In this document: positions 33,971 through 38,104 of the stretch, in pieces
Position numbering within the stretch: position 1 is the stretch's first letter
How the letters are laid out: each line of letters starts with the position of its first letter
DNA from: Candidatus Woesearchaeota archaeon
GTDB taxonomy: Archaea; Nanobdellota; Nanobdellia; Woesearchaeales; GW2011-AR4
NCBI GenBank assembly: GCA_016188245.1
Contig: JACPIE010000038.1
Location: forward strand, 30,939 to 94,938
Reading direction: 5' to 3'
Length of the DNA: 64,000 bases
Made by a program: the position numbers and the translations under genes
Notes under the pieces: generated by a model
The model's database searches: none
The model's input: only the letters and a program-made list of their open reading frames with translations
Told to the model about the DNA's origin: nothing

Positions 33971-36900
33971 TTAAGTGCAGAGGCCCCATCCGCATCCCGG
34001 GCAGTGCAAACATCCTTCTTTAAGCTCAACTTTAGTGCCGCACTCCGGGCAGTTCTTGATTGTCTGTTTTGTAATCGGCCTTGCATCGCTTCCATTGCCG
34101 TTGGCAAAAACAAGCCCGGATTCCGACTCTTTGACCATCTTTTTCATCTCTGGCTTTATGTCCACTTCAATATTTGCGCCTTCCTTTTTCTCTTTGGCTT
34201 TTGGGGCGACAAGCACTTGATCCTTGATGCTGGAATCCCTGAACACAGTCACATCCTTGCAGCCAAGCGTGTAAGCCAGGATATAGCTTTCTTTCATGTC
34301 CTCAACAGTTGCATCTGCAGGAAAATTGTTTGTCTTTGAAATGCTTGAGTCCACCCATTTCTGGAATGATGCTAAAGCTCTTATATGGTCTTCCGGAGTC
34401 ATGTCAGTTGCCGTAACAAGCACCTTCCTCAGTTGCTCAGGCAGATATTCAATTCCCTGTATGCTGCCCCTGTGCTCGTTTATGTCTTCCATGAGCTTTT
34501 CATTCAACAGACCTTCATCCCTGAGCACTTTTTCAGCAGCGGGATCCACATAATAAAAGCTGCCGACTTTCACATTCTTCTCAAACACAAGGGAATAAAC
34601 CGGTTCCATTCCTGATGAGCATCCGGCAATCATTGAAATGCTCCCTGTTGGGGCGATTATTGTAGTATACCCATTCCTGATGCCGTGCTTCTTTATGTCT
34701 TCGCTTATTTTGCCCCAGTCAAAATGCGATTCATCTTTTAAATAAGGGCCCCTTATCGGCAATTTTCCCTGCTTGTAAAAGCTTTTGTCATAATATGGAA
34801 GATTGCCCCTTGCCTTTGCAAGCTCTATGCTTTCAACCTTGCTCCAGTAGGCTATGAACTCCATCAGCAGCTCCATGAATTTTCTTCCTTGTTCTGAGTT
34901 GTAGGCAAGCCTTAATTCATACAGCAAATCACCGACTCCCATTACACCCAATCCTATCTTCCTTGTGCTTAAGCTCATCTCCTCGATTGCTTTTAACGGG
35001 AAATTGTTGACATCAATAACATTGTCCAAAAATCTTGTGCAGCCCCTTACAACCTCCCTTAATGAGTCCCAGTCAACTGTCTTGTTGCCTTCCTCATCTT
35101 CTTTTGTAAATGCCCATACATTTATGCTGCCAAGATTGCACGGCTCATTTGGGTAAAGCAGAACTTCGCCGCAATTATGCACAACAATGCCATTGGCTAT
35201 GAAAGAATGTGTTGATGGTTCTGTAATGTCATAAACTTCTTCAATGCCACTTATCTCTATTCTATCTATGCTGTCTTCATGTTCTTCATTAGTAGTTATT
35301 ATCCTATCTTCTTCCGTTAATTTTGCAGCTTCTATCCACCCATTTGAAGTCAGTATTTTATGATCTGGTGTGCATCTCAAGTCATTTCCTTTTTTGGTAA
35401 TCAATTTAATGGTTTGTTTTAAGCCGGTTTTGAACACTTTATATTGCGTAACATGATTTATCAATTCCAAAAATTGATTTCCGTTTTTTACCGTTTGATG
35501 TACGGCTATTCCCACACCTCCATTAGGATATTTTTCAGCCAATTCTTTTATACTTATCGAACCACTCTTGGTCAAAATCATTGTATCTCCTGTTACGCAA
35601 GGATTAGTCGTGACAATAGGCCCAAGATGCTCGTAAAATGGGTTGTATTCATTTACCCTGTCAAAAAATATAATGCCGGGCTCTGCAGATTCCCAGGCCT
35701 GATAGACAACCTTGTCAAATAACACTCTTGGGTTTACAGTTTTGACCACTTTTCCGTCCTTTGGATTGACTAAGGGATATGGCTCGTTCTTTTCATAATG
35801 CTCCCAAAAATCAGGCATTATCAGTATGCTTATGTTGAAATTCCTCAATGACTTGTTGCCATCCTTGGCGGTTATGAACTGCTCTATGTCAGGATGGTTT
35901 GAATTCAGGATGCCCATGTTTGCCCCTCTTCTTATCCCCCCTTGCTTTATCACTTCAGTCATTGTATCAAACAGCCTCATGAAGCTCAAAGGCCCTGAAG
36001 CTACCCCCCCTGTGGAGCTGACAAAATCGCCTTCCGGCCTGAGCTTTGAGAAATTGTAACCCATGCCGCCTCCTGCTTTAAACACAATTGCAGTATTCTT
36101 TAGCGTTTCCATGATTCCGTCTATGGAGTCCGGAACATCCAATACAAAGCAATTATGCACAGAAACCATATTTGCAACATAAGAATGGTCTTCTTCAATC
36201 TCAAGATTGTATACAGTTCCGACATAATCCACTTTCGATATTTCGTCTATTTCTGTAAAGGTTATGCCATCTGCAACAATGGTATTTGGCTTGTAACCAC
36301 TATCAACTTCCTGCCTGTCAAATAATTCATTAATAAGCAAAAGGCCATTTTCTCCGCTTATTGTGCACCTATAAGGCTGGGTTGTTCCAAGCTTCGGCAT
36401 AGACTCCTTACCTAAAGCAGTAAAGACACCGCAGCGCATAGCCATCTGCCAGAAAGCATAAACTAAATTTTGATTGCACATCACAAGTTTTGCGTTTGTT
36501 TTATGCGAGTTTTTGAATATGGTGCCGTCTCCTCTTATCAGTCCAGCCATAATTCCTTTTTGCTTATTCTGGGGCAGTTTTATAATCCATTGCGGTATAT
36601 ATTTATTTTTATACCCTCTGCCTAAAATGTTTTCAAAGAAATTAGCCAGTATTGTAGAATGAAACCTTAACGATAGCCATTTTCTAGCTTCGCTATTTGT
36701 TTTTTCTATTCTTGCAGAAACTCCAAATTTATTCTCCATTATTGATATAACTTCTCTGCAATAATTTTCCTCATCGGCCGAAAATGTAAATCTTACACAA
36801 TCCTTGTCTGCAATTGAGCCTTCAGAAAGATAATACCCAAATAACTTCATAAGCTCGTAATCAACAGTAATGCTATTTTTTACAGGCTTTGTAGTGTGTA

Positions 36901-38104
36901 CAAATGCATTGAATTTTCCTCCCTTATACTCATAGGCACACTCATCCTTTTCATTCAAGGTTACATTTTTAACTACGTCATTAATCCTTATTTCTGTAAT
37001 TTCTTCTGTTTCTGTAGGGTAAGATAAAGCTACATAATCTCCTTCATCAAGCATATTAAGCTGTATCCATTGAATCTTGTTGTCCTTATAGCTCAGTATA
37101 GGATGCTCTTCTGTTACAAGCATGGAAGGCTTTGGGAGTTTGCTGCAACTCACTTTGTATAAAGAGTTCGTATCTCTAACATATACTTTTTCAACTTTTC
37201 TAAACCTGCCCCTGTGTGTCAGTACTTCATCTCCAACTTTAATGTTTTTTATTTCCTTTGGACCATCTTTAGCCATTATTGGTTGGTTTGGATGAAAGCA
37301 TGCGCTTCCCATTCCCAAAGGATTGCCAAAATTGGCAATTGCAGGGGTATTCGGCATAAACAGCTTTCTTGTCATCAAATTGTAAAGCTCATCAAAATTC
37401 TTCTCATAGCTGTCAAGCTCGCCTTTCTTTATCATATCAAAGAGCTTGCTCCATGACACTTTCATCTGCCCGTTGCCGTTGAACCTGTCGTACATTCTCT
37501 TCAGCGCTTCCAGATGATACCTGTTAAGCCTGTATTTTCCAATTCCATACTGGTCTTCATTAATAGCGGGCTTGAAGTCTTCTGTGAAGTTTACCGGCTG
37601 CTGGCCGTGTATATCGAACAATCTTGCATCGTAAAACAAGTCAGGCAAAGCCGCATGCACTGCAACTCTTGTAAATAGCTGCTTGGGAGTTTCAATCAGC
37701 TTGCCTGTTGCATCCTTTCTCAAGTACCTTGCTTTCAGGACCCTTAACGCGTTTACATCAAAGCGCTTGTCAACTTCGTCAATTTCCTCTTTTTCAAGCA
37801 CAAGCTGCTTTTCCTTTCTTACCTCTGACCTTTGCTGCCTGTAAAGAATGTAGGCTTTTGCAGTTGCAGCATGCCCTTCCTCAATAAGCACTTTTTCCAC
37901 AATGTCCTGAATTTCTTCAACAGAAGGCACGTCTTTGTTGAGATTTTCAAGCTGCCCAATAACTTTGTCGCTGATTTGCCTGGCTGCTTTCCTGTCTTTT
38001 CCTCCGACAGCCCTTGCAGCCTTGAAAACAGCCTCTGTAATCTTGTTTTGGTCAAATCCTGCCACAGTCCCGTCCCGTTTCCTTATCTGAAAAAGCTTTT
38101 GCAT
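33971..38104 (-). CDS. nrdJ: adenosylcobalamin-dependent ribonucleotide reductase (class II) with ATP cone, two inteins and C-terminal Zn ribbon
   Basis: N-terminal ATP cone '[20 protein letters not shown]'. Catalytic exteins '[16 protein letters not shown]', '[22 protein letters not shown]' and NPC|GE. C-terminal '[26 protein letters not shown]'. The intein-free product would be 852 aa. Confidence 0.9.
   Translation of the reverse strand: [1377 protein letters not shown]
35174..35599 (-). mobile_element. intein 2 (142-aa mini-intein) inserted at the NPC|GE radical-Cys motif
   Basis: '[16 protein letters not shown]...[24 protein letters not shown]'. Cys1, a terminal HN and a +1 Cys are present and there is no endonuclease domain. 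The paralog reads '...[21 protein letters not shown]' at this site. Confidence 0.85.
36152..37300 (-). mobile_element. intein 1 (383 aa) with LAGLIDADG homing-endonuclease domain, inserted before a conserved active-site Cys
   Basis: Begins with Cys ('[11 protein letters not shown]') and ends '[12 protein letters not shown]'. LAGLIDADG blocks '[11 protein letters not shown]' and '[12 protein letters not shown]'. The extein junction aligns with 'LAACFVLPIEDD' in the intein-free paralog. Confidence 0.85.

Follow-up and report, generated by a model that had tools for sequence, protein, structure and literature searches.

A stretch of 64,000 nucleotides from a Candidatus Woesearchaeota archaeon (GenBank assembly GCA_016188245.1, contig JACPIE010000038.1, positions 30,939 to 94,938 of the forward strand; hereafter the window) carries on its minus strand an open reading frame (ORF) of 1377 amino acids (33971..38104) that is identical to a protein deposited at NCBI as "hypothetical protein HYV80_06435" of Candidatus Woesearchaeota archaeon. 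Its profile matches identify the gene as nrdJ, encoding a class II, adenosylcobalamin (AdoCbl)-dependent ribonucleotide reductase (RNR), and the reading frame is interrupted by two inteins. With the inteins left in, the NrdJ equivalog model TIGR02504 (NrdJ_Z) scored 649.7 bits (cut-off, 399.95), upholding the class II assignment made in an earlier, sequence-only reading of this DNA, and a Pfam scan of the precursor returned the RNR barrel (PF02867) at 481 bits together with the RNR all-alpha, Intein_splicing, Hint_2, and LAGLIDADG_3 domains. Three exteins are encoded on the minus strand: an N-extein (residues 1 to 268; 37301..38104) that ends in GMGSA and is collinear with intein-free orthologues; a middle extein (residues 652 to 835; 35600..36151) running from CFVLDVPD to IVTTNP and delimited by alignment to Thermotoga maritima NrdJ and to a paralog in the window; and a C-extein (residues 978 to 1377; 33974..35173) that, by alignment to the T. 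maritima enzyme, contains the remainder of the catalytic barrel (including EPCNLGS) and the C-terminal domain. The paralog, a short nrdJ gene encoding 586 residues (28992..30752, minus strand) that is free of inteins and lacks both the ATP cone and the cysteine-rich domain of the long gene, served as a comparator; its synteny is kept in the related loci L001 and L002.

Intein 1 occupies residues 269 to 651 (36152..37300, minus strand), exactly the boundaries first proposed for a 383-residue intein with LAGLIDADG blocks, and its boundaries, motifs, Pfam and NCBIfam matches, and family profile mark it as a class 1 intein with a LAGLIDADG endonuclease domain. It begins with Cys269 (CFHPNQ), which is invariant in the family; block B reads VTEEH, with T63 and H66 invariant in alignment A1; and blocks F and G lead to a terminal VHN followed by Cys652 (CFVLD) at position +1. 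Each intein was scanned alone against curated cut-offs, and intein 1 exceeded those of PF14890 Intein_splicing (47.0 bits; cut-off, 35.8), TIGR01443 intein_Cterm (24.3 bits; cut-off, 15.6), and PF14528 LAGLIDADG_3, which matched in two stretches (38.5 bits; cut-off, 22.5). Both LAGLIDADG motifs are present: motif 1 (residues 421 to 431; 36812..36844, minus strand) has an acidic Glu that is invariant in the family and matches LLGYYVSEG of PI-PkoII, and motif 2 (residues 519 to 529; 36518..36550, minus strand) has an invariant acidic Asp and matches FLEGYFIGDG of the same protein. PI-PkoII (Thermococcus kodakarensis Pol intein-2, PDB 2cw7) is the nearest solved structure, being likewise a LAGLIDADG intein with matching motifs; it was found with a single-sequence search (E, 6.3e-07) and, with the intein-1 family profile, at E 1.6e-17, with PI-SceI following at E 2.4e-10. 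It differs in residing in a DNA polymerase and in its length (537 versus 383 residues), and the similarity is low. The assignment of a Hint fold to intein 1 is based on PF14890 and on the profile matches to solved inteins.

Intein 2 (residues 836 to 977; 35174..35599, minus strand) is, from its boundaries, its model matches, and an AlphaFold model compared by Foldseek, a 142-residue mini-intein without an endonuclease. As had been claimed, it splits NP from CGE, interrupting TNP/CGE (the slash marking the insertion point) so that its +1 Cys lies on T. maritima C322. It begins with Cys836 (CVTGDT), invariant in the family; its block B, CTPDH, contains T77 and H80, invariant in alignment A2; and blocks F and G end in VHN, with Cys978 (CGEVL) at +1. 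Scores were 56.8 bits for PF14890 (cut-off, 35.8), 29.2 bits for TIGR01443 (cut-off, 15.6), and 50.4 bits for TIGR01445 intein_Nterm (cut-off, 24.5), and among solved mini-inteins the sequence matched NpuDnaB at E 1.6e-16. The AlphaFold model had a predicted local distance difference test score (pLDDT) of 80 and a predicted template modelling score (pTM) of 0.75, and Foldseek aligned it to DnaB, RecA, NrdJ-1, and DnaE inteins at template modelling (TM) scores of 0.75 to 0.83 (0.80 to 0.83 for DnaB, RecA, and NrdJ-1) with a probability of 1.00. A homologue search with the 142-residue sequence returned no match, but the word index handles sequences this short and divergent poorly, and absence cannot be concluded from the result; relatives at the same insertion point were drawn from the extein search. 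Among them are inteins of 388 residues, and intein 2 aligns to both of their ends, with some 246 central residues, including both LAGLIDADG motifs, missing. On this alignment, intein 2 is best read as having descended, with loss of the endonuclease, from full-length inteins such as those that occupy this site in sister genomes.

Removal of both inteins leaves an extein of 852 residues, of which 518 align to T. maritima NrdJ (PDB 1xje/1xjk; E ~1e-114) and which is collinear with that enzyme, with the short paralog, and with orthologues of ~850 residues, both junctions being ungapped. In the alignment with the paralog (39% identity; E, 2e-144), no gap crosses either junction, which bears out the earlier statement that both junctions match uninterrupted sequence in the neighbouring gene. 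The +1 Cys of intein 1 (SACF) falls on T. maritima residue 134 and that of intein 2 on residue 322, TNPCGE corresponding to N320, C322, and E324, while the Cys of PCNLGS in the C-extein falls on C333. On the model of the T. maritima and Escherichia coli enzymes, C134 and C333 form the redox-active pair and C322 is the thiyl-radical Cys. By homology, the +1 residue of intein 2 would be the thiyl-radical Cys and that of intein 1 a redox-active Cys, in line with the original placement of the inteins at two catalytic cysteines. The probability that the two insertions are ordinary lineage-specific NrdJ domain insertions is vanishingly small, and we rejected this reading, in favour of which nothing was seen: PF14890 and TIGR01443, intein models of the kind whose use had been advised, exceed their curated cut-offs for both inteins; the Hint blocks A, B, F, and G, whose lack would have pointed to domain insertions, are all found; the fold agrees with that of solved inteins; the boundaries are exact, with C...HN/C in every homologue; and the insertions are cleanly absent from orthologues. 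The splicing residues Cys1, His-Asn, and Cys+1 are present in both. By these sequence features, the insertions are bona fide class 1 inteins, and the ORF, the inteins, the extein alignment, and the domains are not explicable by chance.

Close relatives display the same elements in different combinations. Among the 120 closest orthologues (65 to 87% extein identity), 86 were shorter than 900 residues and intein free, and the remainder formed a mosaic that included genes with both sites filled. The position of intein 1 (site A) held the 383-residue intein alone or a 165-residue endonuclease-less mini-intein, and that of intein 2 (site B) held the 142-residue mini-intein or the 388-residue full-length LAGLIDADG intein. 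Intein-free orthologues with ~85% identity sit at the syntenic locus, and gene order is as in the window in L001 (intein free) and in L002 and L003 (mini-intein only), the common order being long nrdJ, cobO/btuR, pterin-4a dehydratase, short nrdJ, acetyltransferase, hydrolase, and major facilitator superfamily transporter. Between empty and occupied sites the encoded amino acids are the same, and the DNA differs by synonymous changes only; the paralog DNA there is quite different. The empty intein-1 site of the L001 allele reads ...ATGGGCAGTGCA/TGCTTTGTATTAGAC... (also written ...GGGATGGGCAGTGCA/TGCTTTGTATTAGACGTTCC...).

The pattern of divergence of intein 1 suggests that it is an active mobile element. 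When it was compared pairwise with copies in eight Woesearchaeota and Nanoarchaeota genomes, the ratio of nonsynonymous to synonymous divergence (dN/dS) was 0.04 to 0.15 for the endonuclease region, which indicates that the endonuclease is under purifying selection, and 0.08 to 0.12 for the splicing region. The proportion of synonymous differences in intein 1 was 0.28 with respect to L004, 0.51 to L005, and 0.57 to L006, whereas the flanking exteins of the same genes were saturated at 0.64 to 0.78. The inteins are compositionally foreign to the host gene: the GC content is 0.34 in intein 2 and 0.36 in intein 1 versus 0.45 in the extein, and the GC content of third codon positions (GC3) is 0.32 in intein 1, 0.27 in intein 2, 0.50 in the extein, and 0.47 in the paralog. 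The dN/dS values, the low synonymous divergence, and the distinct composition together argue that intein 1 passed recently from one lineage to another, once the host genes had diverged, as homing predicts, and intein 1 is most likely still homing into intein-free alleles of its site. It is rather unlikely, although by no means negligibly so, that intein 1 splices but carries a LAGLIDADG domain that is inactive or retained for some other purpose, such as structural support, under purely vertical inheritance. Intein identity does roughly follow extein identity (80 to 86% versus 83 to 86%, and 61 to 63% versus 69%), as vertical descent predicts. Both catalytic acidic residues are invariant, however, and this reading also has to contend with the low dN/dS of the endonuclease domain, the gap in synonymous divergence between intein 1 and its flanks, the disparity in GC3 between intein 1 and the host gene, and the mosaic of presence and absence in close relatives at one syntenic locus.

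The best explanation of these data, in which we have high confidence, is that the ORF encodes the main AdoCbl-dependent NrdJ of a Woesearchaeota (DPANN) archaeon as a 1377-residue precursor with two predicted self-excising class 1 inteins, of which intein 1 is probably a homing element. Each intein would undergo an N-S acyl shift at Cys1, trans-thioesterification onto the +1 Cys, cyclization of the terminal Asn, and an S-N shift, and the three extein pieces would be rejoined to give the active 852-residue enzyme, with the host's own catalytic cysteines serving as +1 nucleophiles at both sites. Both of these nucleophiles are catalytic residues of the host, and the insertions break up strand beta-A and the finger loop; the precursor must therefore be inactive, and selection on an essential enzyme would enforce precise splicing. 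Intein 2 would be a fixed remnant, devoid of its endonuclease and kept by vertical descent. The anatomy, the residues, the mapping of the sites, the polymorphism at the syntenic locus, the purifying selection on the endonuclease domain, and the low synonymous divergence of the intein are direct results of the analysis; splicing and DNA cleavage we infer from conserved residues and from comparative patterns.

Several points weigh against this account. Splicing and endonuclease activity are both deduced from sequence, and an AlphaFold model of intein 1 built from a seven-sequence alignment had a pLDDT of 36 and was discarded. Selection for perfect splicing may be weaker than it would be for a sole RNR, since an intein-free paralog lies ~3.2 kb from the end of the ORF. 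In addition, saturation sets in at a lower level where third positions are AT rich, so the lower synonymous divergence of the intein could be partly compositional; this caveat lessens the force of the more distant comparisons but leaves that with L004 intact, its value of 0.28 being well below any plausible plateau.

Neither insertion site is rare. The point before the thiyl-radical Cys is named in the literature as the most frequent RNR intein site, and few known proteins are as rich in inteins as RNR, for which one survey counted 211 in bacteria and 43 in archaea (PMC4760082). When intein 1 was searched exhaustively with HMMER, 144 representative proteins were retrieved at E <= 1e-30; the best 150 matches included 43 RNRs, most with an intein exactly at site A and with exteins 26 to 62% identical to that of the window. 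A scan of species-representative genomes of archaea and bacteria found site A occupied in at least 313 loci, with hosts including Aenigmatarchaeota, Heimdallarchaeota, Thermoplasmata, Bathyarchaeota, Omnitrophota, Chloroflexota, Acidobacteriota, and Campylobacterota. In these other phyla the allele (LGQLSA/C...VHN/CFVLP) shares its insertion point and architecture with intein 1 and is 30 to 64% identical to it outside Woesearchaeota, the difference lying in the host lineages. In the literature searched, we found no name or description of site A, and only position-less allele lists were found for the InBase letter names (RIR1-a and RIR1-b), so that no letters were assigned to either site. With sites this common and RNR this rich in inteins, both alleles are ordinary.

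Several known RNR inteins invite comparison. The best NCBIfam match of the precursor was NF006207 (878.5 bits, under its cut-off of 2400 bits), which describes the two-intein class II RNR of Pyrococcus and Thermococcus (NF006207/PRK08332; 1684 positions). When the extein fragments were mapped onto this model, ~382 extra positions (model 859 to 1242) fell exactly between TNP and CGE, so that the model has an intein at site B, as here; its other intein misses site A by ~30 residues in the downstream direction, falling between extein residues 298 and 299 near AGGGM/G, and both of its inteins are only distantly related to those of the window. A Pyrococcus-type RNR sharing both sites was accordingly rejected as a counterpart; only site B is shared. 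The RIR1 mini-intein of Methanothermobacter thermautotrophicus (Mth RIR1; 134 residues), like intein 2 a natural endonuclease-less mini-intein in an archaeal RNR, presumably lies at TNP/C(G or S)E, the insertion point of intein 2, flanked by Pro at -1 and by Cys at +1. Its putative sequence aligned with intein 2 from end to end (28% identity; E, 7e-20), and we treat this as a lead only. Intein 2, unlike Mth RIR1, has an AEKYPNGG insertion of its own and full-length relatives of 388 residues at its site. The metagenomic NrdJ-1 split intein (PDB 8ubs) is an NrdJ intein beside the thiyl-radical Cys with the same fold as the intein 2 model (TM score, 0.80; E, 4.9e-10), but it is split over two genes and inserted one residue more C-terminally, after the Cys and not before it (PMC2677866).

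Outside the inteins, the long gene has features that the paralog lacks. An ATP cone, the allosteric activity site, spans residues 6 to 94 (37823..38089, minus strand; PF03477, 91.5 bits; cut-off, 25.8; E, 5e-26), as had been predicted. At the other end, the region first described as a C-terminal CxxC...CxxC zinc ribbon does contain a cysteine array, but one of six residues, C1352, C1355, C1365, C1368, C1371, and C1376 (33977..34051, minus strand), spaced C-x2-C-x9-C-x2-C-x2-C-x4-C; the description is refined to the NrdJ cysteine-rich domain of Loderer et al. (2017), with a predicted zinc site (PMC5704485). The spacing is close to that of Stackebrandtia nassauensis NrdJd (Cys-920, -923, -933, -936, -939, and -945; x2, x9, x2, x2, x5), and in this domain four cysteines have been proposed to act as zinc ligands and two as an electron shuttle to the active site (PMC5704485). 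Genomes with two NrdJ proteins, only one of which has the cysteine-rich domain, are known (PMC5704485), and the window resembles them; the known NrdJ enzymes compared here, which share the catalytic residues and six-Cys C-terminal array of the host enzyme, are without inteins, and the N-terminal ATP cone of the host enzyme may be an addition relative to them. In the all-alpha region of the N-extein (37301-37760, minus strand; residues ~116 to 268), residues 118 to 158 and 190 to 225 both match one N-terminal stretch of the paralog, and the Pfam lgN model (77 positions) is stretched across residues 114 to 263, which points either to internal duplication or to a ~75-residue insertion, probably shared by the orthologues, since they have the same overall length.

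Upstream of the long gene, 38 nucleotides before the start codon, lies a tandem operator resembling NrdR boxes (38143..38190, with no strand assigned), recognized by sequence and consisting of two 16-bp boxes and a 16-bp linker; its minus-strand sequence is ACACAAGATGTAGTAT, the 16-nucleotide linker, and ATACTATATGTTGTGT. Under the NrdR-box definition of PMC13584703, both boxes have all six conserved positions (C4, A6, A8, T9, T11, and G13). This is the sole such pair in the 64-kb window, where 0.02 would be expected per shuffle, and it is kept upstream of the orthologues in L001 (7672-7719), L002, and L003. No such pair lies upstream of the short paralog, and a regular-expression search (C..C...R.C..C) of ORFs of at least 100 amino acids found no candidate NrdR gene in the window; of the genomes of archaea, 22% have NrdR (PMC13584703). 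The interval between the nrdJ genes contains, at ~0.7 kb from the precursor ORF, a gene for an ATP:corrinoid adenosyltransferase (BtuR/CobO; 32635..33246, minus strand; PF02572, 186.8 bits), the enzyme that makes AdoCbl. It is a neighbour also in L001, L002, and L003, and this syntenic context supports AdoCbl as the likely radical generator of the host RNR.

The presence of the paralog raises the question of which copy supplies RNR activity. A reading in which the interrupted gene is decaying, its inteins no longer splice, and the short paralog provides the activity could appeal to the proximity of that intein-free NrdJ and to the fact that NCBI labels the long gene merely as a hypothetical protein. 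We consider it very improbable. The 4.1-kb ORF is intact, every splicing residue and RNR catalytic residue is retained, and in comparisons with orthologues the proportion of nonsynonymous differences in the extein is ~0.09 to 0.10 whereas synonymous differences are saturated. The long copy alone possesses an ATP cone, a cysteine-rich domain, and NrdR boxes, and the two-paralog arrangement is found also in genomes whose long copy is intein free. The short paralog, moreover, reads STDSCGE in place of the usual TNPCGE, with Asp for the canonical active-site Asn; the paralogs of L001 and L002 have the same sequence, so that the Asp is conserved and no sequencing error. On the basis of the intact ORF, the retained residues, the low nonsynonymous divergence, and the features unique to the long copy, a pseudogene was rejected, and a functional, splicing precursor is the preferred reading.

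Splicing might itself be conditional, for instance if a disulfide between Cys1 and Cys+1 blocked it under oxidizing conditions, and the inteins would then be a post-translational switch on the synthesis of deoxynucleoside triphosphates (dNTPs) rather than neutral parasites. Both inteins have Cys at positions 1 and +1, examples of redox-trapped precursors have been described among other inteins (PMC4031507, references 99 and 100), and the gene already has two nucleotide-sensing layers of control in the ATP cone and the NrdR-like boxes. Cys1/Cys+1, however, is the commonest intein configuration, and the 86 intein-free genes among the 120 closest orthologues indicate that the inteins are dispensable for regulation in sister lineages, so we regard conditional splicing as improbable. 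Marginally more doubtful still is the proposition that the inteins form a redox- or temperature-sensitive gate on two cysteines with catalytic roles in the main RNR of the cell and are more than tolerated parasites; were it true, the gate would be a post-translational checkpoint on dNTP supply on top of the NrdR-box and ATP-cone controls. The reading that we prefer remains that of two splicing inteins, the first of them probably homing.

Other features of the window were recorded alongside. Between the two nrdJ genes, positions 31438-32282 (plus strand) contain an ORF for a HicA toxin (81 residues) followed by a 200-residue ORF without a family match; as L001 has a MazE/PIN pair at the syntenic position, this appears to be a variable toxin-antitoxin slot. 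A block at ~38000-46000 has a GC content of 0.30 to 0.33 versus ~0.40 elsewhere and may be a horizontally acquired island. It encodes two ORFs without a family match (38362-38778 and 39188-40327), a haloacid dehalogenase (HAD) hydrolase, a DprA homologue (40922-41830), and, at 41953-44835, a 960-residue MrfA-like DEAD/DEAH helicase with an MrfA zinc-binding domain and a fused C-terminal RNase_H_2 (exonuclease-like) domain. Rfam identified a tRNA of 107 nucleotides at 61882-61988 (plus strand; 51.5 bits), presumably an intron-containing archaeal tRNA; ARAGORN, unlike Rfam, reported no tRNA in the window.

The survey of relatives also brought to light a third intein allele, outside the window, in loop 2 of related NrdJ genes, where it is inserted between KQGG and xRRGA (KQGG/C...HN/xRRGA) at extein position 340/341. 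It is carried by proteins P0041, P0042, P0141, and P0287-P0289 and by loci L084-L100 (e.g., L086:1501-2991 and L088:1501-3513), and is a canonical-looking LAGLIDADG intein of 443 to 448 residues with Cys1, TxNH, and a terminal HN. Its +1 residue is less conventional: in 15 intact metagenomic loci it was Thr in six, Lys in six, Ile in two, and Arg in one, and in P0041, P0042, and P0141, which come from Woesearchaeota and Heimdallarchaeaceae, it is Ile or Arg. All described intein classes require Cys, Ser, or Thr at +1, and only bacterial intein-like domains do without (PMC4031507). Where the nucleophile is lacking, the allele could possibly splice by aminolysis, by analogy with those bacterial domains; it is also possible that it only cleaves, giving a two-piece RNR, or that it is decaying and tolerated because of a paralog. 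This allele is the most interesting by-product of the analysis and deserves a study of its own.

In summary, every element of the earlier reading was upheld, with one refinement in the C-terminal domain, and the case is ordinary: two inteins in an RNR are a common, well-known arrangement, and nothing is changed in what is known of inteins or RNRs. The annotation is nevertheless corrected, in that the deposited hypothetical protein is, from its profile matches and alignments, an intein-bearing NrdJ, and two well-defined DPANN inteins are added to the catalogue. A 142-residue Cys1/Cys+1 mini-intein that tolerates Pro at -1 could serve as a tool for protein engineering. In the uncultured archaea to which it belongs, the locus provides a natural series of the stages of a homing cycle, with empty sites, full-length inteins, and mini-inteins found among close relatives at a single syntenic locus.

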